Of a stretch of DNA of 64,000 nt, positions 20,282-64,000 are shown one piece after another. The translations under genes were made by a program, and so were the position numbers. A model generated the notes under the pieces. That model had not been told where the DNA came from and searched no databases. It saw nothing but the letters and a program-made list of their open reading frames with translations. The stretch's first letter is position 1. The number at the start of each line of letters is the position of its first letter. Source of the stretch: Schmidtea nova (taxonomy: Eukaryota); NCBI GenBank assembly GCA_044892505.1, contig CM097882.1, positions 530,968,001 to 531,032,000 of the forward strand, read 5' to 3'.

Positions 20282-20304
20282 AGAAGGGATCAAGGTGGGG
20301 GAAA
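20282..20304 (+). promoter_or_regulatory. Polypurine tract
   Basis: AGAAGGGATCAAGGTGGGGGAAA directly abuts the TG of the 3' LTR. Confidence 0.8.
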
Positions 20305-37965: not shown

Positions 37966-38627
37966 GAATAAAGGGCTTAAGTACGAGGAGTGGGTGTTTC
38001 TTAAACCTAAATGTTATAGTCTTTTAGGTGACGAGCAAACTAATAAAGCTAAGTGGCAACATTAGCGGGGCTGAACTCAATGCTGTAATTAAAGAAATGA
38101 ACCTCGCGATTAAGTGGGATCTGTCGTCGATAATCGATAATCGTCCAAAGTTGGCTGGGGTCATTACTGACAGATAGTCATCGAGTAAAAACTCACGGAT
38201 CTTCCGAGATGCTAATTCGTAGGCGTCTACAAATTGTTCATGAACTTCAACTGGCATACAACTTAAAGATAGCCGTGAAGTTTGTCCCGACAGAGAAAAA
38301 CAAGGCCGACGTTTTAACTAGAGTTAAGAAAGCTTGGCTTACATGGGTTAAACAAGTAAGTTGTTCAACTATATCGATATCCGACAGAATAAGGAAGTGC
38401 CACGAGGCGCATCACTTCGGAGTGGATCGAACTCTGTATTTCGTAAAGAAGTTGCTTCCTAAGGTATCTCGTGGAGCGGTACAAGGTGTGATATCAAACT
38501 GTATTAAGTGTCGAACGATAGATCCGGCACCTGTAAAATGGAAACATGGAAATTTGGCGGTGGAGTGTAATTGGACCAGATTGGCGTTAGACGTGACTCA
38601 CTACCGGAATAAGCGTTATTTGACGTG
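37966..38627 (+). pseudogene. Mosaic: pPolB fragment (37966-38064) joined to a second gypsy-type RNase H-integrase fragment (~38058-38627), which is interrupted by the giant element
   Basis: ENKGLKYEEWVFLKPKCYSL (pPolB), then AELNAVIK..NLAIKW, KFVPTEKNKADVLTR, HEAHHFGV..CIKC (HHCC) and RLALDVTHY..YLTC, cut at TGTTGGG. Confidence 0.75.
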
Positions 38628-39189
38628 TGTTGGGATTATGGGTGGGTTTTAAGTAATTCAACTGAATAGTTAATCATAAATTGAACGACTATTGATGAGT
38701 ACGTATACTAGGGATTCCACGCCCATAACCATACATAACATGACTACTACACGTGTATGCCCTTGCCTATTCCCTACTAGTCAAGTTGGTACTGCATACG
38801 GTGGTGGAAAAATGATGGGCAGGTGAGCTTTGTTGCCAAAACTACTCCCCATTTATCTTCCCTCGGGTCCTTGCTGCCGATAGAAGGTCTTACGCATTTA
38901 CATTCTATGGATGTTCGCTTCCCAATGAATTTTATACTATCTATCCTCATGATCTATCACACGCTTTTCCCACTTTGCACTTTCCTTAAATGATCTACAA
39001 GGTGATTAATCAGTCTCTACGTATAAACGGTCGGTTTGAGAAAATTACGGATGAGATTTTCTATTTCGATGATTTAATTGTTGTTAATTTATTTTATTTA
39101 GTAAAATCACCCGATGAGAGACAAAATTTACACAGAAATACTTTTATTAAAATAATAAAAACAGGTTGTTATTTGACATTGATGTTTTT

Positions 39190-39774
39190 CTATGCAAACT
39201 CCAGACTAATCTCCTGAATCAGCTCCGCTTCGGTTAGGGAGTCCAAGTGGTGGATTTGTTCGTCCAGGCGCTTCGCAAATTCTCGGCGACGACGACGCTG
39301 TCGCGATCCCATTCGTTGTTTTCGAAGCTGTTTGGTTAGTACAGGTACTGACGCCATTGTTCTCGATGGATCACTGAGAAAAGCAGGCAAATCGGCCGTT
39401 ACAAAAGAGGGGGCCATTAAGATACCATCTTCCGTCCCGCAAGCGACATCTTGACAAGTACTTTGTGCCCAGCGCTGAGCCGTGATCGGCCGGATTAGCG
39501 CTCGTAATTCGGAGTCGATGTAACTTCTTGTTACTGCGTTTAGGCAATTTCGTAGTTCTCTCTGGACGGCGTCTAGTTCCAATTTAGTGGCGGCCAGTGC
39601 TTCCTGCATTCGCTCGAGTTTTCTCGATTGGTCCTTCATTTGTTCGGGCGAGAACCACTTCGCTCTCAATTCATCATTGGCGACCGTGAGTCGCTTGATC
39701 TGTCGCTGCTGGTCCCTCAACTTCCTCTCTTGGATTTGTCCCATAATTTTCTTAGAATTTTCTGAAGTCGGCAT
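39190..39774 (-). CDS. Unknown 194-aa protein: N-terminal coiled coil, Arg-rich motif (RQRRRRR), acidic/Leu-rich C-terminus
   Basis: Intact ATG ORF with a CAG acceptor 5 nt upstream; more GC-rich than its flanks. Confidence 0.6.
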   Translation of the reverse strand: MPTSENSKKIMGQIQERKLRDQQRQIKRLTVANDELRAKWFSPEQMKDQSRKLERMQEALAATKLELDAVQRELRNCLNAVTRSYIDSELRALIRPITAQRWAQSTCQDVACGTEDGILMAPSFVTADLPAFLSDPSRTMASVPVLTKQLRKQRMGSRQRRRRREFAKRLDEQIHHLDSLTEAELIQEISLEFA

Positions 39775-40101
39775 GTTGTCTGAATATTATAACGATAAAT
39801 TCGCTGTAGGACCCATCAACAATGTTATTTTATTTATTCGACTATTTATTATGGGTAAACGAGATGCATACTAATGGTTTTAATTATTGAGTTCTTTGCC
39901 GAATTATTTAACTATCTAATTATTGAAGGCTCGAAAGATTTAGTGAACTAATTTGATATTAGTAAATGAATTTCCTAGTGACTATACAACTACAACACTG
40001 GATATTAATAACTCTACATTACAACACTATTAACAAAATGAGACACTTCAGATTTCTCTAAAACATTTATTAAATTCAAAAACAGGTGGCCATCGATTCA
40101 A

Positions 40102-40578
40102 CTAGTCATCTTCGGTCATTTTTCCTCGGTACGAAAATATCGATCTGATTTGCAAATTTGTGTGGATTCCTGTGATATTGGACGAGGCTTGCTGGAAACG
40201 GATTCTCTCAGCTTCTCGAAGGGGTCGTATTGCTGTATGGAACTTGAACCCCAATTCCTTGAATGTAGAGGCTGGAATGAACCCCCAGTATATTACACAT
40301 CTCGGGAATCCTCTTTTATCCAACATCAGGACGAACCAGGCGGCGTGCCATGATTCGAATTCCTCGTCTGGAATGATTGGCCAACTAGCGCATCCCCGGT
40401 ACCATACGTGGTGCCGTGGATGGTCCCATACTGTAAATGGACATGCGGTTTCAAGCTCTCGGCGCCATGCCCACATCTTTTGATGGATTTGTTGCAGAAT
40501 TTCGAAAGGAGCCGGCTTCAATGGGCTAATTCGGGCTCGTTCTTGTCGCTTTTTGATGGTGAATCTGTGTTTAGTCAT
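40102..40578 (-). CDS. Unknown 158-aa Trp/aromatic-rich protein
   Basis: Intact ATG ORF with a TAG acceptor 4 nt upstream; GC-rich island; no family recognised. Confidence 0.55.
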   Translation of the reverse strand: MTKHRFTIKKRQERARISPLKPAPFEILQQIHQKMWAWRRELETACPFTVWDHPRHHVWYRGCASWPIIPDEEFESWHAAWFVLMLDKRGFPRCVIYWGFIPASTFKELGFKFHTAIRPLREAERIRFQQASSNITGIHTNLQIRSIFSYRGKMTEDD

Positions 40579-42142
40579 GATACTAGAACAATACCGAATT
40601 TATAATAGTTAACAATTTAAATCAATAATTAATTATAGTAGATGTTATCTCTCATCGTGATGCCTTTATAATTTGCCTACCCCTTAGACCTTAACTGAAA
40701 TCAAGGAAAAACTGTTGTTCGTTACGGTATGCATTACTCTCGTATCTGCTTAGATTTATCTGTTTACGATCAATATTATAGTCGAAAATGGGTGATTTGT
40801 CTGCGTGGATATCGAAACACTGATACCTCAAAACGGAAACTCTCTCTCATCATGTATTCCCTAGCTTATTCGAAAACACTCTTTTGTATCAAATGCGGTC
40901 GACATAATTTTTCTAAGGTTTATTAGACGTTTATTTAGCAACTGTGCTGTAGTGAGGGTGAAAAATTGGGCCTCCTCACAGTCGAAAAATTCTTTCTTAT
41001 CCTACATCGTTAGACTTTCTCCGAAAATCGCCTCCTCGATAGCTAAAATGATTGAAAATTAGTTCCCCGGATTTGTTGGGTGTCCCATGTGCAAATCTCG
41101 ACCACTACTAATAGAATCATATTTGGTTATTTATTACTTTACCGTGTGTGGAGCCCTCGAGCACCACGCCACGGACGGACACCTTGGGAACCTAAAGCTC
41201 CCAACGGCGCAAAATTAATATATCAATATTTTTACAATTAATCGTAACAAGATTTAAATAATCAAAAATTTAATGATAACAAAAACATGCATAGTAAAAT
41301 CAATAAATCAAATTTTACCAAGTAATTCCACACAATTGATCTGATTAAGTTCGGTAGTAATACAATAGTCTGAATTAGTTTGGGGTCAAAATCGCAATCT
41401 AACAATGTCTGAATTTTTTGTCTCAACAAAAGTCTAAACTCTAAATTTCAGTCTAACAAAGTCTAAGTTGTACAAAGTCTAAATTTTAGTCTAAACTCTA
41501 GTCAAAAGTCTGATTTTATGAAAAATCTGATCAGTATTTATACTGATCAGTCGTGTCTAGACCGACCAATCAGGTTCGGCCAGTTTCATGGTGGTTTTTA
41601 ATTATTGTTTTTGATTCTAATTAATTTTTATTTTTTAGATTGTATTCTTCCTTGGAGGTCCGGGTTTCCAAAAACAATTATTCAATAACAAGTACTTTTA
41701 TTTGGTTTTAATTATTATTATTTGTATTTTATTTTGTTTTTAGATGTCTCCTGGGCCCGTTAATATCTAGAAATTCATTTATTTTTATTTATCGCTTATA
41801 CTTAGTTTATCTATATTTTAACTATATTACTCCTTTCTTTTAACAAATAAATATTCCCCTTTTTACCTTATTTTTCTCTTTTTTGTTTTAATTAATCTAC
41901 TTTTATTTCACTTTTCCCTCTATTTGGCTGGCCCAACATCACTCGAGGACCCCTAAAATTGCGTCCCGCAATTAATTATACATTTACACCTATATCATCA
42001 TACATAAAAATTAAGCAGATAAATGTCAATTTACATATACACAAAGAATCACATAAGGTGATAGATTTTATACGTAAGCACAAAGTCATATTATTGTTAA
42101 ATGTAAGTGGATCATACATACAGTGAATGTAATTTATCAGTT

Positions 42143-42754
42143 TTACACAAGCTCTTTGATTTCATGATTGGTATTGGATTGGATTGGGGTACTTTCGCTG
42201 ATTGTTCGTAGTTCGTAGAGGCTTTGGATTCGGTTGAGATGTTTTCTCATTCGTTTTTGGGTTCTGATATCTGGTATTGTTGTTCGATTCAAGATGACTT
42301 GTTTTTGTTTTAGGATCTTTACTCGGTAGGATGTTATGAGGATTGTGATCGCGATAATGGTCACGCTGAGTGCAAGGATTATTATAATTGCGATGATCCA
42401 TTTTTCTTGATATTCTATCTCTGCTTGGGCTAAGCTTTTTATGGGTTCTCGACCTTCTTTTAGGGTTTTTCTGATTGTTTTCAATTTGATTCGATGTTCA
42501 TATAGGACCTGTTGAAATTTTTCGTCGTTTGGGTTGTCTAATGTTATCTGTTGAAGTTGGGTGATTTCTTGTGTTGCTTCGCTGATTAGTTTATCTAGCT
42601 CTTGATAGGTTTTCTCGGGTAGGGCTCGTAGCTCCTTCTCTGTGAGTTGAAGATCTTCTCTTTGTAGGGTGATTGTTATTAGGTATAGGAATATCGGTAT
42701 TCTGAGCTTTTTTTTTTTTTTTTTCTTTACAGATAGGTCAATACAATTTGACAC
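42143..42754 (-). CDS. Probable single-pass membrane protein with a helical/coiled-coil ectodomain; no ATG start
   Basis: Signal-like LRIPIFLYLITITLQ after an A17 run; TM WIIAIIIILALSVTIIAITILIT; basic tail. Confidence 0.6.
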   Translation of the reverse strand: MSNCIDLSVKKKKKKKLRIPIFLYLITITLQREDLQLTEKELRALPEKTYQELDKLISEATQEITQLQQITLDNPNDEKFQQVLYEHRIKLKTIRKTLKEGREPIKSLAQAEIEYQEKWIIAIIIILALSVTIIAITILITSYRVKILKQKQVILNRTTIPDIRTQKRMRKHLNRIQSLYELRTISESTPIQSNTNHEIKELV

Positions 42755-42798
42755 TACATTTCATATAATTATTTACAAAAATATATTTTCCGCTTTAT

Positions 42799-43860
42799 TT
42801 ACACAATCGTCTCATTTGGTTCGTAGAAACCTTCGTCCTGAGGCTCTACTTGGTTCGTGGGGAGTGGTATCCAAACAACCCTGCTCCTCCACATTTCGAC
42901 TTCATCTCGATACATGTGAGATATCTGGATCTCCTCGTCCAGCAAATATTCTAGGTAATTTGCTTGTTCTGTTAATGTTTCTATTTGCTTCTCTAATTCG
43001 ATTACTTTTGTCTTTTGTTCGTCTTCTTTTATCATTTTTGTTACGGCTGCCGTTATACTTGCTTCTTTGGGTATTGCTGGTACTGTTACTCGTTTCTGTT
43101 TCAATTCTTCGTTTTCTTTCATCAAATTCGTTAAATTTTCCTCATAACTTTGTTTCTCTTCCTTTAACCTTTCTCTGGTTCTTTTTAGCTCTATTTTCTT
43201 CTGGGTAATCACTCCTTGATAACCATTTATATCTCTCTTCATCTCTTCTTCTTTCTGATTCCATATTCCGGTGAGCATAATTTTCAGTTGTTCTTGATTA
43301 GCTAGTTCTTCTCCCATTCTTTGAACTTGATAGGTTAGTCCTTTAATTTTCTTTGCTTGTTCCCGGATAAATTGCTGTCTCTTTGTATTCCATCTTTTAT
43401 TCAACACTTCTTGGTGTATTTTCTGTTCTAACTCGTCTTTTAATTCGTCGATCTCTTTATATAATTTCCAGTCATCACTATAAGCTGTCCTTTCTATTAT
43501 TTCTCTAGCTTTTTCGTAAGATTCTTTCGCTTCTTTCTTCCAGTATCTTGCTTGTTCTGTAATCGAATACATCTTGTGTTCAGCTTCCATCTGCTGTCTG
43601 TCTCTTTCCTCTCGTCGCTCTTTCATCATTCTCTGGTAATATTCCTTTTGTTGTTGTAGCATTTTGTATACTTCTTCTATTTTTTCTCGACTTCTTTGAC
43701 TTGATCTTTCCGCTTCTTTTAATAATTCGGCTTGTCTCTCTATCTCCTCTTGCTTTCCATAATATGCATTGACCCATATTTCAATCTGTTCTAGATGATC
43801 GCTAATCGCTTCTGCTTGATGCATCGTAATTTCCTGTAAGCATACTTCGATATTTCCCAT
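42799..43860 (-). CDS. 353-aa long coiled-coil protein with an N-terminal MG (possible myristoylation)
   Basis: E/K/Q/R-rich heptad-like sequence; starts MGNIEVC. Confidence 0.7.
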   Translation of the reverse strand: MGNIEVCLQEITMHQAEAISDHLEQIEIWVNAYYGKQEEIERQAELLKEAERSSQRSREKIEEVYKMLQQQKEYYQRMMKERREERDRQQMEAEHKMYSITEQARYWKKEAKESYEKAREIIERTAYSDDWKLYKEIDELKDELEQKIHQEVLNKRWNTKRQQFIREQAKKIKGLTYQVQRMGEELANQEQLKIMLTGIWNQKEEEMKRDINGYQGVITQKKIELKRTRERLKEEKQSYEENLTNLMKENEELKQKRVTVPAIPKEASITAAVTKMIKEDEQKTKVIELEKQIETLTEQANYLEYLLDEEIQISHMYRDEVEMWRSRVVWIPLPTNQVEPQDEGFYEPNETIV

Positions 43861-43973
43861 TGCTATAATTACAGAAAAAAAATTTTTTAATCGGTTTATA
43901 TCAGTTATTTTTGTTTATATAATAATTTTTGGGTATTTAACTGTACATATTATTTACATGATCACTTCTCGTT

Positions 43974-45356
43974 TTACGTCAACCATCCTTTTCTATCCGC
44001 TTTCTCGTTCCTTTCCATTTCTATATATAAGGTGTCTGCATATAATCGTTCCCATAGGCTTTCTTTCGTTATAAACATCGGTTCTCCCGCTGCTAATCCA
44101 CATTCTGTGGTTGGTTTCTCGCTCGTACTCGCATGTTTCTCTGTCTCAAAGAATTTTTCTACTGGGTTTGTTACACTTCTGATTCTTACAATGACTCCTA
44201 CTTTCAAGGGCCATTTTACTAGGTCGTCGTATTCTCCTTTACATAGCGAGAAAAATATTGACACATGTGTTCCCCGTCCTCTTCCGTCTCCATTTGGGTA
44301 TAGCTTCAATCTCACTTTAGCTCCGTTTCTCCATAAATAAAATGGTGGGCTTATTACTGCTGTTTTCGTCATATTTCTGGCCTCTGTTAATTTGTCTCTA
44401 AAATCTGTCACTTTCCACACATATGGTGCTATTGGTAGCTTTTCCTCGGTATCCTGTGTGAGTTTGTTGTACTGGATTTTCATTCCTTTAGCCAATTCTT
44501 CGATAGCTTTTATCTTTTTCTCCATCTTTTCTCGTGTTAGTTCGAATTGCTCTCTGGTTTCCAACAGTAGGTTTACCATTATCTTGTGTGACTCTATTTC
44601 TTTTTCTAATTTTTTGATCGTTTGTTCGGTTTCTTTTGTTGCTTCGTTTGTCAATTCCGCATGCTTTAGCAATGCTTCCTCCAGATGTTGTTTTATGGTT
44701 TGTTGCGTTCTTTTCTCCATACATCCCTGTTTGTTATAAGGACATTCCCTTGGTTTCTCCGTGCACACTTTCCAATGTTCTTGTAATTTTACTTCTACCG
44801 TTATCTCGCATTCGTTTGAACATATTCCTACATATTGTCTACATACTTTCTCCTCTTTTACATTCAGGTGTTCTTCTTCGATCTTTCTCCTCGTTTCTCG
44901 AGTTCCACAATATTCACATAGACTTTCCTCTTCTTTACATTCATCTTTGTGCTGCTCTTTATTCTTTATAGTTATTTTTTGTTGGCATTTGTTACATTCA
45001 GTTCTCTTCTCTTCGCAGTTCTCCAGATGGTTCTCGAGATCGCGTATTTGTCCTTGCCATATACATGGTTGATTTATACATTCGGTTTTCGTGTTCATGA
45101 TTTCTCTCTGAGTTGCTCTATCTGGTCCGGTTTCTTCGAATTTTATTTGTCCTTCTTTGCATTCTGGACATTCTGGTGGTTTTTTCATACTTAACTCGTG
45201 TATGCATTTGGTACATACCCTGCATCCGCATAGGGTTTGTCTTGGTTTCAATATTATGTTTTTACAATTTACACAAGTGAGTCTCTGACTCCATTTCCTG
45301 TTCTCGGCTCTCAAAATTTCGATTATCCGCTCTTCGGCTTTTCCTTCTGTATTCAT
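43974..45356 (-). CDS. TRAF: Full-length intronless TRAF homologue (RING, TRAF zinc fingers, coiled coil, MATH/TRAF-C)
   Basis: RING CVNC..IL.KPRQTLCGCRVCTKC..CPEC; zinc fingers CINQPCIWQG..HLENC and CPYNKQGC; MATH YVWKV..F...SPPFY..G.KVRLKLYPNGDGRGRGTHVSIFF.L.KGEYD..VKWP. Confidence 0.92.
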   Translation of the reverse strand: MNTEGKAEERIIEILRAENRKWSQRLTCVNCKNIILKPRQTLCGCRVCTKCIHELSMKKPPECPECKEGQIKFEETGPDRATQREIMNTKTECINQPCIWQGQIRDLENHLENCEEKRTECNKCQQKITIKNKEQHKDECKEEESLCEYCGTRETRRKIEEEHLNVKEEKVCRQYVGICSNECEITVEVKLQEHWKVCTEKPRECPYNKQGCMEKRTQQTIKQHLEEALLKHAELTNEATKETEQTIKKLEKEIESHKIMVNLLLETREQFELTREKMEKKIKAIEELAKGMKIQYNKLTQDTEEKLPIAPYVWKVTDFRDKLTEARNMTKTAVISPPFYLWRNGAKVRLKLYPNGDGRGRGTHVSIFFSLCKGEYDDLVKWPLKVGVIVRIRSVTNPVEKFFETEKHASTSEKPTTECGLAAGEPMFITKESLWERLYADTLYIEMERNEKADRKGWLT

Positions 45357-45447
45357 TCTACAATGATATATACACTTAATTTGCTATCTATTTTTTGATT
45401 TTTCTTGTTTTTGTTTTTACATATTTACAATTTTTCGCTTTATTTAT

Positions 45448-45804
45448 CTACGGCTCGTTTGTTGAATCTGGTTCTGGGTCATTTTCTGATCTGTTTATTG
45501 CCCAATTTGTCCATCCATCCTCTGCTTCTTCTGTCTCTCCCATTGTTAAACGGTCTATCTCTATTGCTTGCCTTTGGTTTATGTCGCTTATCACTTGATT
45601 CTCTCTGGTAAGTTGCGTTATCAATCTCTGTTGCTCCTCGATTCTGTGGAGTTGTTCAAAACTATTATTATAACTTTCGGATAACAAATTCTGTTTCTCA
45701 ATTAACTGATTTTGTAGTGAGTTGATTGTTCGTATTAACATGTCACACTGGGCTTTCCATCGCATAGCCATAGTAGTTTCTGCTATTTCTTCCTGTTCGT
45801 TCAT
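45448..45804 (-). CDS. 118-aa coiled-coil protein of unknown function
   Basis: ATG ORF with a TAG acceptor 3 nt upstream; heptad-like, acidic C-terminus. Confidence 0.55.
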   Translation of the reverse strand: MNEQEEIAETTMAMRWKAQCDMLIRTINSLQNQLIEKQNLLSESYNNSFEQLHRIEEQQRLITQLTRENQVISDINQRQAIEIDRLTMGETEEAEDGWTNWAINRSENDPEPDSTNEP

Positions 45805-45929
45805 TTTCTAAATTATATACATTAATCGTTTTCTCGATTTCTCTTTTTATATTTTTATAATATCGATACCCATACTATTACGGTAATGCATTGTTATTTA
45901 CACTATTATTTACAGTCATATCCCGCCTC

Positions 45930-48392
45930 CTATATCACCATCACTGTCTTTCCTTCGTACCGCTCTTCATCTTCTATTTGTCTCCAAAATTCTTTACCTT
46001 TCGTCCTCCTTTGAAATTCTTTCTGTACTTCTTCCGGTAATTCTATTCTGTAGTTCATAATTTTTATATCTGGCCAATGTGTTATTGGTTTCTTGTTGAG
46101 TACATCGTATATCCATATTATTAATAACACTGTTATTACTGGAATAGTTGCTGCTAGTATTCCTAGACCAATTAGTTCTCTAACTTGTTTGTTTACATCC
46201 ATCTTCGTAATTTCACTCTGGTTAATCATTGGTCCGTATTGTCCCTTTAGTTTATTTAGTAGTTGTTCTCGTTCTTGTTGTTTTCTTTTAACTTCTTTAA
46301 TTACTTCTTCCGGCGTCCATCTTGCGTAAGGGTCTATTACTACTTGTTCTGCGTCCATTTGTTTCGTTGTCTGACTTAATTCTTTAAATTCGAGTTTTCT
46401 CACTTTCCCTTTGGATGTTGAGTTTACCGGTGTGTAGTACGTTTTGCATCTTTCCTGCTGATTACCCAGTATGTCCGTCTTTTCTATCGCACATATCTCG
46501 TATTCGCTATTGAATTTCAGATTTCTGATACTTATTTCCTCTTTTCCTTTCACGTTTCCACAGTCTCGTGGCTGTCTTTCCCTTTGTTTCTGAACTATTA
46601 CCCAACATATTTCTAACGTTTTATTGTCTATTCTCCATAGTATAAGAGTTGCTGTAGTATTCTTTTCGGTTTTTATTTGTATTTCTTGGTTTTTCTGTTG
46701 TCCATTAGGTTTAAAGGTAGTGGTATACCTCGCTTTTCCTTTGTTCCGTTGTCTTCTACTTTTTTGCGTTGTCTTTCCAGCTCTTGTTCTGGTGGGTGTT
46801 TTATATAATTTGCATTCCAATTCATTTACTGTTATTTTGTCGCTTTTCCTAATCAGGCATATTTCGTACGTTTGATTGCTTTCTAATCCTTCTATCTGTA
46901 TTGTGGTTGTTCCTCTGTTTGTTCGACATTGCGGCGGTGTATTCTGGTTTGTTTTCTTTTCCTGCTTCTTCCAGCATACGCCTTTGACGTCCGGTTCTAT
47001 TCCGGTTAACTCTAACATTATAGTTGTTCTCCGTTTGGTGCGTATATTTCTTCTTCTTCTTCTTATGAACTTTATTGCTTCCCCGGGTTGAAATGTTTTA
47101 CAAATGGTCGTTCCTTTCTTGTGTCGTTCTTTTTCTAGTAAACATAGTTCATACGTCCTGTCTGCTTTTACTTTCGATATCTTGGTTACTTTATTTGTTT
47201 TCCTTTTCCGACTCGTCTTTATTTCGCTTATGCCAATTTCTTCGTTGTTTCGGGCCCAACACTTTAGGTTGGTATTTTGTGTATCGTTCATCTCTGTTAC
47301 TGCCATTGTGTCAATGTCTATCCCTTCTTCTAACCGTTTTAACATTGTTAATATGAGTGCTAAACATAGTAATTCTGTTTGATAGGTCACTCTTTCGGTT
47401 TCATTTGTGGTTACTCTTACTTCGGGCTTGTCTATTGTAATTCGTATAGTTGGCGTTGTTCGTCTATCTATTGTCTGGGGTTTTTTGTTTTTTGTTCCTT
47501 GGGTCTCTGTTTTTCCACACTTTCCTACGACGTAGTCTCCTTTGGATGTCTGCTGTACTGTTATGGTTACTTTGGGCGTTAGGTAGTTTGCACATGCGAT
47601 TGTGTTGTGTGATCTTGGATTCTTTTGTTTTCTGATGGTGCATATTTTGTACCAAGTATCTAGCTCTAAGTCATCGATCTCTATGATTTCTTGTTCGTAT
47701 TCTGAGATCCTGCAATCCATTGGACTATTTTGTCCCGATATTTTGTCCTTTTTCGACCAACATACTCGTTCGATTCCTTTTGCGTTTCTAATTTGTATTG
47801 TCGCTCTTTCTTCACATATCATTCCTTGAGTTGGACTAATTAAGGTCATGATTACCGTTAGTAATAATAGTTCTGGTTTAAAGAATGGGTTTATTGTTTG
47901 TTTGTAGCCTGTTCTTTTTGCTTCGTTTTTATTTTTATAGTTGTTGTTTCTTTGTTTCTCAAATTCGTTTTTCTTATCATTTTTCTCTGTGTTCCTTCCT
48001 TTCTCTTCACTGTCCTCTTTATCTGATAACTCGTGATCCTCTGTATTTTCTCGAGTACTATCGTCGTTGCTTCCTGTATTGTCGCCTCCCCTTTGGTCGC
48101 TGAAAATGTCGTCCTCGACATTAATTGCTTCTATCATTTTTTCATACGTTATGGTTGTGAGTATACTTGCTTCATATTCTTGTGTTTCTGCCTGCTTAGG
48201 TATTTCATTATCGGTTAATTTACAATCTAGAATCTCTTTCTTGGCTTTTATCCAATTTTGAGGTACGTTTTCATTAGTTCTTTCCATTTGTCCGTACGTT
48301 CTGTTTCCTTTGGGTTGTTTGTGAATCGTAAATCTTTTCTTCTCATGAAGATGTCTATTATCTTTGGCCATTTGTTTATTATTAATGCACAC
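45930..48392 (-). CDS. Type I membrane protein with internal signal, four FN3-like repeats and a TM; probably the frameshifted C-terminus of the polyprotein
   Basis: Signal LLLLTVIMTLISPTQG; four repeats of W...I.xLxxxxxYxIC...C..(Y/F)x(T/Q)P; TM LIGLGILAATIPVITVLLIIWIY. Overlaps the pol stop, and one extra A at 48256-48259 would join the two. Confidence 0.75.
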   Translation of the reverse strand: MCINNKQMAKDNRHLHEKKRFTIHKQPKGNRTYGQMERTNENVPQNWIKAKKEILDCKLTDNEIPKQAETQEYEASILTTITYEKMIEAINVEDDIFSDQRGGDNTGSNDDSTRENTEDHELSDKEDSEEKGRNTEKNDKKNEFEKQRNNNYKNKNEAKRTGYKQTINPFFKPELLLLTVIMTLISPTQGMICEERATIQIRNAKGIERVCWSKKDKISGQNSPMDCRISEYEQEIIEIDDLELDTWYKICTIRKQKNPRSHNTIACANYLTPKVTITVQQTSKGDYVVGKCGKTETQGTKNKKPQTIDRRTTPTIRITIDKPEVRVTTNETERVTYQTELLCLALILTMLKRLEEGIDIDTMAVTEMNDTQNTNLKCWARNNEEIGISEIKTSRKRKTNKVTKISKVKADRTYELCLLEKERHKKGTTICKTFQPGEAIKFIRRRRRNIRTKRRTTIMLELTGIEPDVKGVCWKKQEKKTNQNTPPQCRTNRGTTTIQIEGLESNQTYEICLIRKSDKITVNELECKLYKTPTRTRAGKTTQKSRRQRNKGKARYTTTFKPNGQQKNQEIQIKTEKNTTATLILWRIDNKTLEICWVIVQKQRERQPRDCGNVKGKEEISIRNLKFNSEYEICAIEKTDILGNQQERCKTYYTPVNSTSKGKVRKLEFKELSQTTKQMDAEQVVIDPYARWTPEEVIKEVKRKQQEREQLLNKLKGQYGPMINQSEITKMDVNKQVRELIGLGILAATIPVITVLLIIWIYDVLNKKPITHWPDIKIMNYRIELPEEVQKEFQRRTKGKEFWRQIEDEERYEGKTVMVI

Positions 48393-54040: not shown

Positions 54041-54043
54041 TTT

Positions 54044-56665
54044 TCAATTTACTTTCTTTTCTCTTTTATAGATGTCAAAACAGGCTAACATTTGCGTTAT
54101 TATTACCCGTATTATTTGTATAATTAGTATAACCCCAAGTATTCCTGCCATCATTTGTCCAAATATTAAAAATCTTCCCCACATCGCTTTCATCATGTTT
54201 TCCGTTGCCTTCTTAAAGTGGGCTGGTGACAATAATAATTCGTAATTTGGTCCACCTTGGTAATTTGTTCCTCCTGTTATTGTTACAATACTGGATAGCA
54301 CCGCTTCCCTTCTTGCTGGAAATAGTATGTTTTGTCTCGCTGCCTCTAAGTCTTTTGCGCTATAGAATCCCATATTACTTACATCTACGTCTTTAAATTT
54401 TCGTCCTTTTGATAGTTGCATCAATTCAAATTCCCTTGGTGCTGGTACCTCTGTTCTTGATGGAAACATAACCCAATTTCCGTCTGGTTTTTGGTATAGT
54501 GGTCCATATGCGTTGCTGCAATTGAAAGGATTTGGTTCGAAGCTTACTGGATTTATGATTCTTGTCACTGGTTGCACATATCTTACCTTCCCTTTGTATT
54601 CGATTTCTAGTTCGTTAGTACACTGACCTGGTTGTAGTTTTGTCATTGTCGCTACCTTCGCATTTGTCTTTTTACATATGTATACATACATCACCTCTCC
54701 GACTACCCTTCCAAAATGACCTTCTCTCAATGGTAATAATGGCATTACACTATCCGGGTTTGTGATTGCTACTGCTAGTTTTGTCTTTAATATTTCCCTA
54801 TTTAATATACAATCGTTATTTATTAAGTCGTAATACACTTTTTGTAGTGACGCTTGTCCTCTATGGAATAGAAAATCCATTTTATTATTCATGTAAAGGT
54901 GTAATTTAACATCGTTCGAGTGCACTTTGCGTTTCGCACTAGGTACTTCTTGTTTTGATACAAAAATGCCGGGGTAGTTGGTTTCCAACATGGCTACTCC
55001 GCATTTCAAGGCTGTTTTTCCTTTTACAAACCTCATTCCGATATCTGCATCTGAGGTAATTAGTACCGTTGGTGTATTTCTCATTTTAATTTGTTTTTCT
55101 TGTGTTCGGGTTTCAATCTTTTTCTCTCCCCGTACTGTGTCTTGAAGTATTTTTCCTCTTGCTGCCTCGTCTTCTTCTTCCTCTTGGAAGGTTTTCCCTT
55201 GTATCTCATCGAATTCTGCTTCCTTTAACAGTTGTAGTTGACATTCCTTTCCTCGTATCTGGTATGTTAAGGTTGACATACCGGTTTGGCAAGTGTTTGA
55301 CTCGATTTTGCACATGGGCAGGGTTTTCATTTCTCCCGTTGTTGGATCGAAGAATGCCTCGTACGTTTTTAATTCCACTGTATAAGTATCTATTACTACT
55401 AGGTTGGTTGCTGCTACTCCGAATATTGGATATGTTGCTCCTTAGCAATACCCTTCTCCTCCCGTAATAGCTCCTGCTACATAATATGTTTGTTGCAATA
55501 TCACTCCCGTTTTTCCTCTTATCTTTACTCTATCTCTAGTCTCTACTTCTCCATGTTTGAATAATTTTTCACAGTCTTCTCCTTGCAGCATTACCGATTC
55601 TCTTTCCGTTCCTGGCATCACGATTGCTGAATAATGGCGGTGCCCACAATAAAAAGCAAATCTGGTTTTATAAACTTTGCATTCTCTGACCATTGTTCTT
55701 ATCAGTTCAGCTTCCTGATATACGTGGTATAATTGTCTCTTTTTTAATGTTTTTAGCTCCGTTGGGGTTGCGTCTTTACATTGTTCTGTCCCTCGTAATG
55801 AGTATTTTTCACCTAATGCCATTTGATCGCAATCGAATACTTCAAATGCTGTTGCGCCGTCAGTACTAATCATCCATATTAACATCATCATAATAATGGA
55901 ACTCAAGTTTAGTGACGATTTCCCGTTTCCTGTTCCCGACTTTTCCTTTTCCAATTCTCCCAATATCTCTTCGAATTTCTTTTTCATATTTTTGGCTTGG
56001 TTTTTCTTTTGGTTCGTTTTTGTGAATGTTTCCCATCCTCCTTTACTGATGATGTACGGTTCTATTTCCTTCTCTATAATTTTGGCTGTATTCTTTATAT
56101 GTCTTTCAAGTGCTGTGGGTTTCAGTCGACCTCTACTCAGTGTCAACAGATTGTAAATTGTGTATGCCATAGCTATTAAATATTTGTTATCCGTCTCTGC
56201 TCCTTCCGTTAACTTCTTTATCAACATCGTGGTTCCTTGCCAATCTAGGTGGTTTGACCTTGTCTTTTCTTTTATTAGTTCTGGTAGGATTGGTGCGATG
56301 GCGCTATGTAGTGATTTCGCCCTTTCGCTTATGTCGTTTATTCTCCACCATTTTTTTAATTCTGGATCGATTATTGCTAGTATTTCCATTAACATCTTTG
56401 ATATCCATTCTTCGCCTTGGTATGTTTGTGTTGTTTCTTTTTCTTTCGTTTCGGCTATTTTATTTAGTTTCTTTAGACACAAATCCCATTGATCCCGTCT
56501 TTTTTCCTCTCTTGATTTTATAACTACATTTGCTGGATCCATCTTGGGTCTACCTCTAGGTCGTTTATCCATTGTCGTGCCCGTTTCTACTAATCTTGTT
56601 TCTCGTCCAGTTTCTTCTGTGACGTCTCTTGGTTCATTGGCTCTTTCTTCTAACAATCTTTCCAT
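54044..56665 (-). CDS. env: Envelope precursor: Bcl-2-like leader + signal + chuvirus-type (gB-like/class III) glycoprotein; one in-frame TAA at 55442
   Basis: ATA|FEVFDC......YSL...EQC start; ECKV.....YCGH..YS; C-terminal W..F..FGQ.MAG+LG++LII TM. ORFs 55442-56665 and 54044-55378 share one frame. Confidence 0.8.
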
Positions 56666-56722
56666 TTCTTGTGTGAATTGTACATTTTCTACATTTGCCC
56701 TCCTTGCTTCCTCTTCTGCTAT

Positions 56723-59700
56723 TTAATTTACTTCTTCTATGATTATTTCTTGTTCGACTTCATCTTCGGTGTTGGTTATCGGTATTGCTGTTGGTAATTC
56801 TTGAATTCTTTCGAAAATATTATCATCTTTCTCTTTTGTTAGCTCTATTAACTCCTCTAACATATCATCACTATCTGTAAAAATTTCGTCTACATCGTAT
56901 GGTTCTGGTGGTGTTCTTTCTCTTGTCTCTCTTGGTGTTGTTCTAGCTTGTTCTGAGCTTGTTCCTGGAGTCATTACCGATTTCATTGGGCTCGGCGTAC
57001 TCATAATTCCTTTTGGTTTCTTTTCCTCTTTCAATTTCAATGGTTGACCTGCTATTGCTGCCACTGTCAATGTATTTGCGATATCTAATTGCGCTGGCGT
57101 TATTCCAATTTCCAAGCTGTTATCTAATGATCGTCCTTGGTGTTGTAAATGGAATGGTGGTTCATATCTCAATTTCTTTTTAATGTCTCGAACTTTCTCC
57201 GCTATCCCTACCCAAAACTCTTCCTTTTCCTGGTTCGGATATACTATTCTTAGGTGTACTTTCTGTGGCGATTCCTGCGAGAATTCCTGGTTTCTCCATT
57301 TTTTAATTACGTGGTCCAATTGTTCTGGACACCACTCGTTAACTCTTTTGTATTCGGCGATTGCTTTTGCTACTTTACGCAAGCATGTTATGTCTTCTCC
57401 ATTAACTACGAAAAAATCTGCGAGACCTTTTACTAATTTTCTCTTGCCGTGCGCATTGGTTTTTAATATTTCGACAAATTCTTCCGTTTTTTGTTTTTCT
57501 CTTTCCAACCACATGGTTGTCGTTTCTGGTCCGTCTAAATCTGCTGGCATGGCTTTTCTTGTTACCATACAAACCCTTCCGGTTTCCGGTTTGTGATCGT
57601 CCTCTACGCCTATTTCATATTCTTCTTCGTATTCGCCTGCTTTTGGTTCCCAACATTTTCCTCGCTCGTTCCATTTCTTTTCTACAGGTGTTCGTAATCG
57701 TCTGTTGAGATTGAGTTCTTCTAATACATTTTCCCATTCTGGCCAAATCCGCCAATTTCGATAGATGTCTACTATTTGTTGTAATTTATGCACAACTTCT
57801 TTTTGTCGTTCCCGTTCTCTTTTCTCATCTTTAGCAGTTTCTCTTGGTGTATCGTCCATTCTGATAACGTGGATGGTTTGGTGGTTATCCCATATACCAA
57901 TTTTATATAGCCGTCTTTCATCGTGATCCCATAATACATGTTCGTTATATTTCATGATTATGTCATCTTCCCATTCTTCTTCTGGTTCTCTTTGTAATAG
58001 TGTCTCGTTGATGACATTTACTAATTCTTTTATGGTACAATCTGCTACCACTTCAATTTCTTTGGTATCCTCATTAGGTAATTCCACCGAAATTTTTAGA
58101 TCTGTTATTTTTCCTTGTCTAAACATTGCTTTTCCCATTTTTGCAATTACTTTTCCGTATGAGATCTGTGACCATCTCGTGTGACTTGTGTCACGTATGC
58201 ACTCGATACATCGTTTCAACTTTTCGTATTCGCTTCTCATTAACTCCTTTCTATGTTTTTTGATTTGTGGGATGATTTGTTCTATCATGGAATTTAGATT
58301 TCCTCGTAAGATTCGTCCTTTCTCATATTCTAACCGTGGTTTTATCTTCTTCTCGAAACACGTATTTGCTTCCTTTGCTACTTCTTGTAGGTTCTCTTCT
58401 CTCTTATCATCGCATATCGATAATGTTGTCACCTCTCCTGGCCATATGCCTGTTTCTATCAAATGCGTCCTTTTCTTCACTAGTCCATTCTGTGAATAGA
58501 GGAATTTGTTCTTATATGAACTCCCCAATCTGTCTTCTACCCATTGGTAAATATCTTCCGTTAGTGGAGTTTTGATCCAAATCCTTGGTAGACATGTTTT
58601 TATCTGTATTAGTATTATATATTCGTGGAGTGGTTCTTTTAATAATTTTCCTACGTATTGGCTTAGTGTTTCTACTTCCCGGCCTGGTAACCACTCTTTA
58701 TAGTTCATTTGTAATATCGCTCTCATGAATTTCCGATAGTGTTTCTTGTCAATGAATTCCTCATTGTATATTACTTCTAGCGCATTATCTAGTAATTTCT
58801 GGATCTCGTCCTCTTTTACTTGAATAGTTTCTGGTGTCTTTACTACTTCTATCTTTTTGTCTTCAATTTCTGGTTCGTTTAGCATGTCCCCTGCTAGACT
58901 ACTGACGTCACTATCCTCTTCGTCGTCTGAAAAATTCTTTGCCTGGCCTCTCAACATGTTAATGTGTTTTGTTTGGTTGGTTTCGCTTGGTGTATTTTCC
59001 GTTGGTCTTGTTTCACTTTTAATGGCTTCTTGTGTTGATTCACTCTTGCCGTCTACTACTTCGACCTTTCTCATTTTTCGTTCTAACTCGTCTATTTCTC
59101 CCAACCGTCTTCGTATCATTTTCCCTTTAATTATTCGACTGATTCGTGTTTCGTGACGCACTGGCGATGGAATTCCTTCTGGTTCTATTTCCTTGATTAC
59201 CATCACATTTCTTTTTGTCTCTACTACTCCCATGTTTTCCCATGTATCCGTTAGTTTCAATTTTACTTCTGGTGCACCTTCTATTTTTAGGAATGCTTCT
59301 CTGGGCAGTTTCGTTACTCCTGGAGCCATTTCATTCACTTTGTTGAACAATATTCCTACTTCTTCCTTTATGTTATATTGGAATCGAAACACGTGCTTGT
59401 TTGGCAAAATTACCATCATTCCTCTTTTCCCGAGTTTCCTTTTCTCTTCTTGGTTCCCTTCTTTTTCTACTTCCTTTTCTGTTTCTTTTTCTGCTTCTTC
59501 ATCTTCTTGTATTATCTCTTTTCGGCCTTCGTTGTTGGTTGGATTCGGGTTTGTTGGATTTATTTCTGGCACGGTCTCTTTCTCGTGGGTATTTGTTTGA
59601 TTGGTTGCTCTCATCATATTAATTCTTAGAGGTTGTCGTTCTCTTTCTTGCTGTTTTTGTTCCTCTTCTCTTTGTATTCTTGCCCATTCCTGAGCATGTC

Positions 59701-61471
59701 GTGCTTGACTTTCCCGATTCAATCGTTCGTTTTCGCTTTCTATTTTTCTCATCATGTTGATTTGTTGTTGACCTGTTTGCGGATTTCCTCTGTTTGTATT
59801 GTTTATCAGCTCCGTCAATCTTTGAACCTCTTGCATTAAATGTATTTCTTTAGGGGTGTTTTTATTTTGGTTATTATTATTATTATTTTGCTGGTTTCCG
59901 TATTCCGGTCGGTTTCCATTATTTGGCTGATTCCCATAATTCGGTTGGTTTCCACCAGTTGGTTGGTTTCCATAGTTTGGTCGGTTTCCAATATTCTGCC
60001 AGTTTCCTCGTTGATTGCTTCTTTGTCCGCACTTTCTTGATAGGTGTCCAGGTCGTCCACTGTTAAAACAGGTTATTGTGTAACATCTGCTCTCTGAATG
60101 TCCTTTTACTCCACATTTTCCACAATTCAAGTTCTGATAACATTCTTGTTGCCAATGTCCCAATTTCCCACATGTTTTGCATTGTTTCGTTGGTCCTTAG
60201 GGGTTGTAATTGTTTTGATTTCCGTAATTTGATACTTTATTCCCTTCATTCCTTCGCTGAGGTGGTGGTCGGTTTAATTGTTGTGAATTTGGAATGTGGT
60301 TATTCAGGTTCACTTCTTGTTCGTTTTGTGCTGTATCCATAGCTAAATAGATTCTACCGTCATTTCCTATCATGTGTAGTTCAAATCTATTAGCTGTTTC
60401 TAATGCTTGGTCAATAGTTTTACACCCTTGACATCCAACTTGCGCTCTTATGTCGGGTCTTCTCAATCCTCCCACAAAGATAGCTGCCATTAACTCCTCA
60501 TTTATTGGACTGTCTTGATTGAAGATCAACTTTGCTAACTTTTTCAATTCGCTTGCATATACCGCATTCGATTCATTTATCTTTTGTTTCCTCATTGAGA
60601 ATTCCGTGAATGCCTCATTCAATACTTTATTTATTCCGAAGGTTTGTTGGAAAAAGTCCTTTATCGCTGACCAACTTGTAGGTGGATTAATTCCGTTTTT
60701 TGCTTCCAAATATAGATCTAATGCGCTATCTTTTAAATATAGCTGAATTCTGCTTACAGTTGTTTCTGGTTTCCACTTGCATACTTCCACGAATATGCCA
60801 AATTCCTTTAAGAAAGTTTCCAATTTACTTGCATCTCCATTAAACGGTTCTCCGGAAAATTTGTCTTTTATCTCTTCTCTGGGTTCGCTCATTTCGATTC
60901 CGCTGTCTGTAGTTATTTTATTTTCGTTTCCTCTTGTTTCTAGTTCACTGTTATGTTCGTCACTCGAATTTCGGTCGATCTCAGTTTCTTTTGCTGATTC
61001 GTTATCTGATGCTTTACTATCGTTATCGGTATCGTCACTTTCTGTTTCTTGTTCTACTTCGTCTTCTATTTCTTCGATATAATCGTTGTTGGTTTTGTCG
61101 ACTTCTATTTCACTTATTGGGTTTCTCTCGGGTTCTGCTTGATTTTCTTTGTTGCTTGAGCTGTTGCTTGTTACTGATAATTTGTCGTTCTCGATAATCG
61201 ATTTCTGTATTATTATCTTCCTCGCTTTACTTCCTTTTAGGCCTTTCTGCTTATTATTCTTGGTAGCTTTATTCTTTTCTGCTGGATTTATTACCACACT
61301 ATTTGGGTCCTCTTTGTTGATTTTACTGTCGACTTTCTTCTCTGCTGGTTTTATTATGACACTCTTTTCTCCTTTTCTCAACGGGATTACTTTTGTATAC
61401 TCAATTTTCCTGTCTTATCGTATTCCGATTCTTTTCTTCCTTGGTTGCTTGGTTTGGTTTGATTGATTTAT
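56723..61471 (-). CDS. gag: Gag (capsid, three CCHC knuckles) with a ~1000-aa extension containing three putative ubiquitin-like domains; in-frame stops at 61415 and 60197
   Basis: PFNGDASKLETFL..F..LYLKDSA.. and KQKINES...Y..EL.KL...FVGGL capsid motifs; CKTCGKLGHWQQEC, CGKCGVKGHSESRC, CFNSGRPGHLSRKC. All in the same frame as env and pol. Confidence 0.88.
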
Positions 61472-61930
61472 CTAAAATACAAATGTCACTTCAACGATAC
61501 TCTATTGTTATCGTTGCGCTTTTATTCCCTTTTTACGGGACTTCTCATTACTGGGTTTCTATTATTTTTCCCCATTCCCAGATTCCCCTTTATTTAAGTC
61601 TATTTAAATTATCTATATACTAGTCACAATTATCTATTTAGTCATAACAATTATCTATCGATTATTAAAATACATTCATTATTTTTCCCGCGGTCTCCCA
61701 ATATATTTGTCGTTCGAACGCTCTAATTCCCTAAGTCATTTGACTCGATTATTATTTTATCATCTCTTTATCTCTCTCTCTACTAGCCTCTAATTATTAA
61801 TTCTGCCGGTCTTTCCGGTCAGCTCCTATTTCTCAATTCTACTTGCATGCATTATTTTAGGTCGCATAATCAGCTTTACTCGCATATCTCAATTATTGGT
61901 GCGCACTATTCTTATTATCGTCGACGATCA

Positions 61931-62245
61931 CAACTCTGGGCCTATATTCCCTCTGTTGTTATTTCTTATCACCTGCAACCCTGGGCCTATATTCCCTCCG
62001 TTGCTACTTAACAATGGTAACCCTGGGCTTATATTCCCTCCGTTACTACCTTTCTTTTTTTAAAATAATTGCAACCCTGGGCCTATATTCCCTCCGTTGC
62101 TACTTAACAATGGTAACCCTGGGCTTATATTCCCTCCGTTACTATCTTCCTTTAATTTTTAAAATAATTGCAACCCTGGGCCTATATTCCCTCCGTTGCT
62201 ACTCAACAACTGTAACCCTGGGCTTATATTCCCTCCGTTACTATA
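61931..62245. repeat. Seven-unit tandem array (AACCCTGGGC[C/T]TATATTCCCTCCGTT core) with an alternating A/B higher-order structure
   Basis: Units start at ~61931, 61975, 62017, 62071, 62113, 62170 and 62212. Confidence 0.9.
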
Positions 62246-62416
62246 TATCCGGATATCCCTATTGGCTCCTTTGGCCTCTAATTAATATCAATTATCTCAA
62301 ATGGCTCTTATGGCCTCAAATTCATATCTCAATTATCTCAAATGGCTCTATTGGCCTTAAATCATATCTCTCAATAACGCCTAGCTAGGTCATTCAATAT
62401 GGCTCTTTGGCCTCAA

Positions 62417-62628
62417 CCCTTTGTTTCAAGGGACAAACCGCTGATAACCCTTTGTTTCAAGGGACAAATTCTAATAACCCTTTGTTTCAAGGGACAAACC
62501 GCTGATAACCCTTTGTTTCAAGGGACAAATTCTAATAACCCTTTGTTTCAAGGGACAAACCGCTGATAACCCTTTGTTTCAAGGGACAAATTCTAATAAC
62601 CCTTTGTTTCAAGGGACAAATTCTAATA
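62417..62628. repeat. Seven-unit 30/31-bp tandem array ACCCTTTGTTTCAAGGGACAAA + (CCGCTGATA | TTCTAATA)
   Basis: Directly visible; the linkers alternate, and each unit contains CCCTT..AAGGG and TTTGT..ACAAA inverted repeats. Confidence 0.92.
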
Positions 62629-63103
62629 AATTTTCCTTAACCGGTTAATCGTAATTCTTAACTTCGCTAGCGACTACAATTTCTCAGCTGAGTTCTCTCA
62701 ATTTCATGCGAGCTGATTATGCACCTCTTATTTTTCTCTATATTTCCTCGATTCTTTGTTTTATTACTAATTCTTTCGCTGATCAGTTCTACTTCAATTT
62801 TATTATTTTCTCTGCGCGCATCTTACCTCATCGGGGTTTTCCCTATTTCTCTCCCCAACCAAAATATACAAAAAGATCGCGTTGGTCTACTAATGCGGGA
62901 TGTGGTGATCAATCACATCACAAAAGCTTTCCAACATTTGCGATTGGCCCCTTTCTATATACCCCGAGTGGGTTGATCAACTGGTACCTCCCAATGGGTG
63001 CTTAACGGACTACTTGACAGTAGCTCAAAATTAATTTAACATTGTTGATTGCTCCCCTGACTTTGTCATTCGATACAATATATTAACACACTCTAAATAT
63101 TTA

Positions 63104-63565
63104 TTATAAATAAACTACAATTTTATCAGTTACAGAGAAATTGCACATGGGGCACTCATCACACTTATTCGCACAGTTTTTACAGAATCGAAAATGTCCG
63201 CATGGTAGAAACATTATTTGGATTTCACTGTCTTCGCATATGTAACATTGTTTATATTGTTTTGCTGCCTCGACCCCTTGCGACATCCATCGGTTATATG
63301 TTAGACTTAACTGCTGTTCTATATGTCGGCATCTGATATTCAACTCGGCATCCTCTAATCGTGCTTTGTACCATTTATATCGCGTATTTATATCGAGTTT
63401 ATTTACTTTCTCTATGATTTTTATTAACTCAGTTGTTTCCTCCGTTTGTGTCGTAGGTTCCTCATATTCGGATGCTCTTATTCGGGTTATTTTTTCGCAG
63501 ACTGTCTCAAATGTATCGTTCTCGGTGTTGAAAAATTCCTCGATTTCTTTCAGTTTTTCCTCCAT
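63104..63565 (-). CDS. 153-aa protein with a C-terminal IAP/MDM2-type RING finger (putative E3 ligase)
   Basis: CYIC......FLPCGH..FC..CA.....CPMC......IVVYL at the extreme C-terminus; no BIR seen. Confidence 0.85.
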   Translation of the reverse strand: MEEKLKEIEEFFNTENDTFETVCEKITRIRASEYEEPTTQTEETTELIKIIEKVNKLDINTRYKWYKARLEDAELNIRCRHIEQQLSLTYNRWMSQGVEAAKQYKQCYICEDSEIQIMFLPCGHFRFCKNCANKCDECPMCNFSVTDKIVVYL

Positions 63566-63894
63566 TTCCTAGATAATTTATTTAATTACTGTGTTAATAT
63601 TATTCGAAAAGTAGTGCTGTGTTTCGTTTTCGACAGTTTATAGCCTCCCCCCCGTGTTTCGGTAAATTGTCGTCCCGACCTGTTGTTTATAATTGCATTT
63701 ATTTAATTTATCTATTTCATTGTGTTGTTGTTTTTATTTACTCAGTTTGTTTAATTCTCTGTTTATAACTATCTATTTCCACGCAACTCGCTTTCGTCTC
63801 AATTACTTATTCGGTTACTATTTTTCTCACAAAATTCTGATTTTAAACTCTCTGTTGTCATTGGGTTCACCTTTTCCGCATAAAAACTAAGTTG

Positions 63895-63912
63895 ATCCCG
63901 GCTGAGCCCCCA
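63895..63912 (-). promoter_or_regulatory. Primer-binding site, tRNA-Pro
   Basis: Minus strand TGGGGGCTCAGCCGGGAT, 6 nt after the LTR end CA; the canonical tRNA-Pro PBS is TGGGGGCTCGTCCGGGAT. Confidence 0.85.
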
Positions 63913-63918
63913 AATTTA

Positions 63919-64000
63919 TGTTGGGATTATGGGTGGGTTTTAAGTAATTCAACTGAATAGTTAATCATAAATTGAACGACTATTGATGAGTACGTATACT
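63919..64000 (-). repeat. 3' end of the 5' LTR of the giant element (cut by the window edge)
   Basis: Identical to 38628-38709. Confidence 0.9.

Follow-up and report, generated by a model that had tools for sequence, protein, structure and literature searches.

Spliced genomic copies and conserved candidate splice acceptors in a giant Burro-like retroelement of Schmidtea nova

The closest described counterparts of the element considered here are the Burro (GYPSM1) elements of planarians. According to the available part of their description, these have internal regions of up to 25 kb and total lengths of about 30 kb, and they encode a polyprotein of ~5,000 amino acids (aa) that carries Gag, CCHC, an env-like fusion domain before the protease, reverse transcriptase (RT), RNase H, integrase and ankyrin, together with RING and MATH/TRAF accessory functions (PMC6431247). 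An element that resembles them in all these respects lies on the minus strand of a 64,000-nt stretch of the Schmidtea nova genome (contig CM097882.1, positions 530,968,001 to 531,032,000; hereafter the window, whose first letter is position 1) and, judged by its sequence, is a Burro-like, env-bearing Ty3/gypsy retroelement. Its genes are probably expressed from one long terminal repeat (LTR) promoter, with a short AUG-free leader cis-spliced to alternative acceptors beside the ATG of each gene, a reading to which we give a probability of about 0.57. In two genomic copies the leader is seen joined exactly at the first two acceptor positions, and the other six acceptors are predicted to be used in the same way.

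Some features set the element apart from its relatives. The TRAF gene is a downstream accessory open reading frame (ORF) here, whereas it lies upstream in the D. tigrina element and inside the polyprotein in Burro1, and, relative to Burro/GYPSM1 as described in the accessible text, there is no BIR or BCL2 domain by Pfam and two ORFs reside inside the LTR (PMC6431247). The same portion of that account contains nothing on the expression or splicing of accessory ORFs, and the word “splic” is absent from the available text of PMC8532177. A literature search, conducted outside the primary Burro description and its supplements, likewise returned no account of splicing in Burro elements.

In human immunodeficiency virus 1 (HIV-1), foamy viruses and the adenovirus major late unit, a 5′ donor near the cap is joined to alternative acceptors that precede the accessory AUGs. 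On the reading preferred here, the element would share with the complex retroviruses (HIV-1 and foamy viruses) a single donor, many acceptors and the use of unspliced RNA as genome, but it differs from them in belonging to Ty3/gypsy, in placing the donor inside the LTR, upstream of the primer site and with two genes between, and in spreading ~eight acceptors over 25 kb. The gypsy element Cer1 of C. elegans is also an LTR retrotransposon with a spliced subgenomic mRNA, formed with and without the host leader SL1; unlike the planarian element, it has one such mRNA, no accessory gene array and demonstrated use of a spliced leader (SL) (PMC3315495). Flatworm SL operons resemble the element in their ~100-nt intercistronic spacers and in the YAG before the coding start (PMC8629364, PMC12582326, both available in part). 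Their internal acceptors show the least cis-splicing (PMC12582326), whereas two acceptor positions of the element are joined to a cis donor that lies upstream of them. The type of element is already known; what is directly shown here is two junctions, involving two leader types and two alternative acceptor positions, and the failure of the idea that an SL AUG starts its proteins.

Leader, donor and spliced genomic copies

The LTR features on which the argument turns are the following, together with the visible end of the 5′ LTR and the adjoining primer site:

38628..41938, minus strand: 3′ LTR, 3311 bp, with TG...CA ends
41535..41542, minus strand: LTR promoter TATA box, preceded at ~30 nt by a CCAAT-type box, in all LTR variants viewed
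41319..41515, minus strand: predicted AUG-free leader exon, different in sequence between LTR variants; the working copy would be that of the 5′ LTR
41317..41318, minus strand: candidate GT 5′ splice donor for the leader type of the window, placed by position and by a step in T content
40583..40585, minus strand: acceptor YAG of LTR-ORF1, at the homologous position of the junction in the spliced element L082/L083
40102..40578, minus strand: LTR-ORF1, 158 aa, inside the LTR, no Pfam match
39780..39782, minus strand: acceptor CAG of LTR-ORF2, the junction in the spliced element L087/L088
39190..39774, minus strand: LTR-ORF2, 194 aa, inside the LTR, no Pfam match above the cut-off
63919..64000, minus strand: end of the 5′ LTR, the remainder lying past the window edge
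63900..63918, minus strand: putative primer-binding site, placed by its position directly after the 5′ LTR

The evidence for splicing comes from two elements, found in searches made after the donors had been listed. A search anchored at the LTR-ORF2 acceptor led to L087/L088, whose leader ends exactly at the listed donor of a leader type other than the window's; the junction is a canonical GT-AG one that skips LTR-ORF1 and removes about 1.56 kb, in both LTRs of the one element. A search anchored at a different listed donor led to L082/L083, where the leader is joined 4 nt before the LTR-ORF1 ATG, at the position of the window's ttctag, and 798 nt are missing, again from both LTRs of one element. 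In each search the free end fell on the predicted site, and in a control 0 of 7 ordinary internal deletions ended at an acceptor. Each element has a 4-bp target-site duplication (TSD) and LTRs that are 99.9% alike, so that the two represent separate recent insertions copied from RNA without the removed segment. Across the spliced copies, the one 5′ donor, in homologous versions from two leader types, is joined to alternative acceptors at two positions. One of three matches in a junction search, L084, was set aside as an unspliced variant.

The earlier note on this window had proposed that the AGs beside its ATGs act as splice acceptors that resolve a polycistronic element, and this part of it is supported, both by the conservation of the AGs and by the use of two acceptor positions in spliced genomic copies.

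No part of the LTR varies more than the leader exon, of which there are at least five different sequences between the shared TATA box and the donor (L062-L080; window 41220-41510). A donor-like GT lies 130-235 nt below the TATA box and coincides with a rise in T content, from 0.20-0.37 before it to 0.53-0.58 after it, in the 7 LTR sequences measured, and ATG is absent from all 4 leaders tested. A resemblance of the LTR leader to an SL was considered and rejected (shuffle p 0.29-0.85). Among 50 LTR matches to the leader type of L087/L088, 2 are spliced, 46 have GT and 2 have CT. The CT replaces the donor GT in both LTRs of one element (G000:C2:264720275 and 264735693), so that RNA lacking the donor was nonetheless copied.

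RNA synthesis would begin below the TATA box of the 5′ LTR. The leader GT donor would then be joined to the acceptor of LTR-ORF1 or LTR-ORF2, as in the DNA-level junctions of the sister leader types, or, as predicted, to that of the RING, Gag, ORF119, TRAF, 353-aa or 190-aa ORF. Each spliced product would be a one-gene mRNA whose first AUG is that gene's own, and the unspliced RNA would serve as genome. The primer-binding site would be retained only in RNAs spliced to the two LTR-internal acceptors, and probably for that reason only these have been copied back into DNA. Splicing to RING or to any acceptor beyond it would remove the primer site, and RNAs of this kind should not turn up as proviruses, so that their absence says little.

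Candidate acceptors beside the coding starts

Beyond the LTR, the predicted acceptors and the genes behind them are arranged as follows (counts are of locus rows, in which overlapping loci may be counted twice):

63569..63571, minus strand: acceptor YAG of the RING ORF, 3 nt upstream in 17 of 17 locus rows
63104..63565, minus strand: RING (C3HC4) accessory ORF, 153 aa, by Pfam
61472..61483, minus strand: Gag/polyprotein acceptor, T-rich and ending in TAG, the same in both subfamilies
45930..60892, minus strand: giant polyprotein, Gag-CCHC-env(fusion)-protease-RT-RNase H-integrase-ankyrin-membrane tail
45808..45810, minus strand: acceptor YAG of ORF119, kept in 38 of 38 locus rows
45448..45804, minus strand: ORF119, accessory, 118 aa
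45358..45360, minus strand: acceptor YAG of the TRAF ORF, kept in 39 of 40 locus rows
43974..45356, minus strand: TRAF-like accessory ORF, zf-TRAF and MATH, 460 aa
43863..43865, minus strand: acceptor YAG, with a T-tract, of the 353-aa ORF, kept in 46 of 46 locus rows
42799..43860, minus strand: 353-aa accessory ORF, charged and helical-looking, no Pfam match
42143..42727, minus strand: 190-aa accessory ORF (about 190 aa), containing a hydrophobic segment; in the window copy an A-run stands in place of the acceptor and the start region
42700..45929, minus strand: range of four short spacers, each with TGTAAATA soon after the upstream stop, and some with AATAAA

It had been claimed that every ATG-initiated ORF has a YAG 1-5 nt upstream. 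This holds for the six ATGs that were listed (63565, 45804, 45356, 43860, 40578 and 39774, with YAG 3, 3, 1, 2, 4 and 5 nt upstream, respectively) and fails for the Gag ATG at 60892, whose nearest YAG lies 10 nt away in a purine-rich context. A close YAG is present at 76 of the 533 minus-strand ATGs of the element (14%) and at 9 of 71 non-coding ATGs; at the background rate, the chance that all six listed ATGs would have one is ~1e-5. The 190-aa ORF, a seventh accessory ORF that the earlier note did not include, has CAG 1 nt before its ATG in 43 of 44 locus rows. At LTR-ORF2 the YAG is kept in 25 of 27 rows, the remaining two being the spliced copies, and the AG of the Gag/polyprotein acceptor is present in 28 of 30 close loci.

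This arrangement extends to a second subfamily. Matches to the MATH region (2427 genome candidates, 150 scored) include a subfamily B at 86-88% identity, which is separated from the window's subfamily A by a synonymous divergence (dS) of 0.79-1.03 in the capsid (six B copies). All six B copies retain the YAG at ORF119, at TRAF and at the 353-aa ORF, four of them have one close to the start of the 190-aa ORF, and at the first LTR ORF, which encodes a visibly different protein in B, the YAG stands directly before the ATG (distance 0) in 6 of 6. The bases between YAG and ATG change between the subfamilies, the distance at TRAF being 1 in one and 3 in the other and the RING acceptor reading TAG or CAG. 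In all, AG-to-ATG distances are 0-5 and 15 nt and cover all three frames, as expected of a leader that brings no AUG. The subfamily B LTRs (L062-L068, L078, L080) carry ORFs other than the window's, of two kinds, and none of the three tested has a Pfam match.

Several observations weigh against cis-splicing of one leader to every gene. Junctions are present at only 2 of the 8 acceptors, both at the DNA level and in sister leader types; 0 of 20 LTR matches to the window's own leader type are spliced, and no spliced copy was found for the first LTR ORF of subfamily B, one search giving none and the 3 matches of another being unspliced CAG-to-TAG variants. At LTR-ORF1 the site reads AG in 33 and GG in 67 of the best 100 of 193 LTR matches, and within the same best 100 every listed match with the L082 exon start has GG. 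Two of the six B copies lack a close YAG at the 190-aa ORF. Finally, the downstream cassette, whose spacers are of operon-like length, is separated from the donor by ~21-24 kb that contain several acceptors and AATAAA motifs. Four GG copies inspected at LTR-ORF1 have CAG 15 nt upstream instead, and the L082/L083 event may represent a non-canonical GT-GG splice, descent from an unlisted AG-bearing parent, or a template switch. A junction (non-A plus G) precedes 0 of 72 ORF119 exon starts examined for processed copies. Contigs of four runs from one study (of unrecorded kind) that cover 38600-49000 show a donor-acceptor join in 0 of 15 listed joints of 18, which carries no weight either way.

It is possible, if on balance unlikely, that the element is a hybrid operon in which the LTR-proximal acceptors are cis-spliced and the RNA of the cassette of ORF119, TRAF, 353-aa and 190-aa ORFs is cleaved within each spacer at a signal for 3′-end formation, the part released downstream being capped by trans-splicing of the host SL, with no need of an SL AUG. 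The spacers measure 78-129 nt (about 80-130 nt) and match the intercistronic distances of flatworm operons given in the available parts of two studies (peak about 100 bp, PMC8629364; median 99 bp, PMC12582326). They are also enriched in TGTAHATA, which occurs 7 times in 443 nt of spacers, as against a single time in the polyprotein (14,962 nt), and which subfamily B has retained. AATAAA follows some of the stops, yet it is absent after the polyprotein stop in the copies inspected. We take TGTAHATA to be the Pumilio-element consensus; it also contains the UGUA 3′-end element. The genome contains a 41-mer (L112:1073-1113, minus strand) that ends in ATG, with no GT after it and no Rfam match, and that we liken to a spliced leader. 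In the accessible text of the sources, cis- and SL splicing often use the same acceptors in flatworms (PMC12582326), SL splicing occurs in a planarian (PMC10899757), and the SL1-spliced mRNA of Cer1 offers a precedent (PMC3315495); a planarian SL sequence was found neither in the supplements of PMC7346339 nor in PMC7986045.

Against such an operon, none of the 72 ORF119 exon starts shows an SL junction, and the SL-like sequence shares no 14-mer with 112 sequences (696 kb), both weak tests given that such RNAs would be without a primer site. A cis donor exists upstream, and cis donors are said, in the part of the source available, to outcompete the SL (PMC4558846); absence of an upstream cis donor is a mark of SL operons, and at the two LTR acceptors such a donor is present. 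Nor would an SL AUG be in frame with the AUG of the 353-aa ORF in either subfamily, or with that of TRAF in one of them.

A further explanation, which we consider improbable, is that the downstream genes are expressed by internal promoters, reinitiation or leaky scanning and that the AGs are minor acceptors or relics of captured host exons. The six acceptors that have no junction evidence, the modest T-tracts at RING and TRAF (T 0.41), the loss of the AG at LTR-ORF1 in one subfamily lineage and the shortness of the spacers would all be compatible with it. Against it stand the YAG beside the ATG, kept across a dS of about 0.9 while the intervening bases change, and the sharing of this arrangement by different LTR ORFs; ATGs within the spacers would be a hindrance to reinitiation.

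The start of Gag

The leader-splicing model predicts that each mRNA begins translation at the gene's own AUG, and the region between the Gag acceptor and the first Gag AUG bears on where the polyprotein begins:

60893..61414, minus strand: N-terminal Gag extension, 174 codons, AUG-free and stop-free, with a ratio of nonsynonymous to synonymous divergence (dN/dS) of about 0.4

Two ORFs had been described as lacking an ATG, Gag from 61471 and a membrane ORF, and neither description stands. The sequence TTTTAG|ATA is present at 61471, and in keeping with the earlier note ATG is found there in none of 30 loci, the window's own included; the frame that opens at this AG is, however, not that of Gag, since in 29 of 30 loci it runs only 18 codons before a stop, and the Gag ATG lies at 60892, about 50 codons before the Retrotrans_gag domain. 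From the gag acceptor to the start of the open Gag frame there are 57 nt in subfamily A and 61 nt in B, so that the frame of a leader AUG joined at this acceptor would not be conserved. What was called the membrane ORF is the last part of the polyprotein, which a frameshift separates from the rest in the window copy: over 48700-47900, 9 of 11 other loci read one open frame that is one base longer than the window, and of the remaining two, one covers part of the region only and the other has two stops. The contigs of the four runs show this break as well. With neither ORF holding up, the gag frame not kept and AG-ATG distances in all frames, the proposal that an SL supplies start codons falls.

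The frame upstream of AUG 60892 is nevertheless unusual and may be translated. In 9 of 10 copies it stays open over 153-193 codons (108 in the remaining one), and each of the other frames contains 10-20 stops; its dN/dS is 0.34-0.47 in 12 A-B pairs; and between the gag acceptor and AUG 60892, 9 of 10 copies are free of ATG in all frames, where composition would lead one to expect 5.9 (P 0.002). A candidate start is the near-cognate codon AUU near 61405 (A at -3, G at +4), the fourth of the extension, which reads AAA ATT G in 9 of 9 full-length extensions. Likely, then, a long Gag would be initiated at a near-cognate codon and the shorter one by scanning to AUG 60892, as the selection acting on the extension suggests. 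An SL-AUG start at the stop just before the extension was considered and rejected, as the stop is TAG in 4 copies and TAA in 5, with no pyrimidine tract. In the window, 61491-61518 (minus strand), just upstream of the gag acceptor, holds an 8-bp inverted repeat that is kept with G-U-type changes in subfamily B.

Murine leukemia virus glyco-Gag likewise has a Gag frame open upstream of the first AUG and yields long and short forms. In PEG10, a non-AUG N-terminal extension has been shown, and there too, in the available text, a Gag-type frame is open upstream of the first AUG and gives long and short forms (PMC2800197); the element differs in the length of its extension (153-193 codons), in its candidate codon, AUU, and in that its start is predicted from sequence. 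That a non-AUG-initiated long Gag is combined with a hybrid operon in which UGUAAAUA elements control each mRNA seems doubtful.

The weakest proposal, that every acceptor takes the host SL and that its AUG starts Gag and the membrane ORF, can draw on flatworm SLs that end in ATG (PMC12582326, available in part), on the SL-like relic in the genome and on the lack of ATG at 61471 in 30 of 30 close copies, but it is scarcely credible in the face of cis junctions at two acceptors, the stop 18 codons after the gag AG, the different gag frames of the two subfamilies and the identity of the membrane ORF.

The element, its neighbors and its significance

The element has an internal region of 22.0 kb and LTRs of 3.3 kb, for a total of 28.6 kb; its 3′ LTR is 99.76% identical to the 5′ LTR, and a 4-bp TSD flanks it. 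One further feature precedes the 3′ LTR:

41939..41957, minus strand: purine-containing stretch, candidate polypurine tract by position, similar in both subfamilies

Pfam matches occur in the order RING, Gag, CCHC, viral fusion glycoprotein, protease, RT, RNase H, integrase and ankyrin, followed by the TRAF/MATH ORF, so that ankyrin, MATH/TRAF and RING motifs are all present. Gag through ankyrin share one frame, with the env-like fusion domain in frame between Gag and the protease. BIR, BCL2-like, SUMO-like and dUTPase-like motifs gave no Pfam match at E 0.05, a search that did not extend to profile-profile comparison, and a protein search with the TRAF ORF returned 12 distant matches and no close relative. 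In the window copy the polyprotein is interrupted by four in-frame stops (near 60197, 56723, 55442 and 54044) and by the frameshift, near 48250; wherever other locus rows span these four stop positions, they read as sense (41 of 41, 10 of 10, 12 of 12 and 6 of 6 rows, respectively). The family is abundant, the gag region alone having 593 candidates in the genome, of which 40 were scored.

Between RING and gag, window 61931-62629 holds tandem arrays with periods of 30/61, 41 and 42/99, the 30-mer unit containing a short inverted repeat. In the sequence L081, a cluster of short AT-rich ORFs of another kind occupies the expected gag region and is probably a nested insertion. Elsewhere in the window, on the plus strand, a 5.7-kb element at 14876-20604 is bounded by identical 300-bp direct repeats and carries an HSP70 fragment, ubiquitin, DUF1759 and an aspartyl protease; none of its ORFs has an RT match. 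DUF1759 is presumably a BEL/Pao-type Gag, and the whole is likely a young non-autonomous element with captured host gene pieces. The plus strand also contains an IS4/piggyBac-type transposase fragment (9291-10442) and a frame of the rhodopsin family of G protein-coupled receptors (32573-33565).

Burro elements belong to the largest retrotransposons, and their gene content includes genes of apoptosis and ubiquitin type. How such genes are expressed from a single LTR promoter is a matter on which the available account is silent (PMC6431247); the spliced copies answer it for two genes and provide exact junctions that can be tested for the remainder. Should SL reads be found at the downstream acceptors, one would be dealing with a mobile element organized like an operon of its host. 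Overall, the spliced copies suggest that a Ty3/gypsy lineage has arrived independently at the way in which complex retroviruses express their genes; as its donor and two of its genes are part of the LTR, any solo LTR could function as a small spliced transcription unit.

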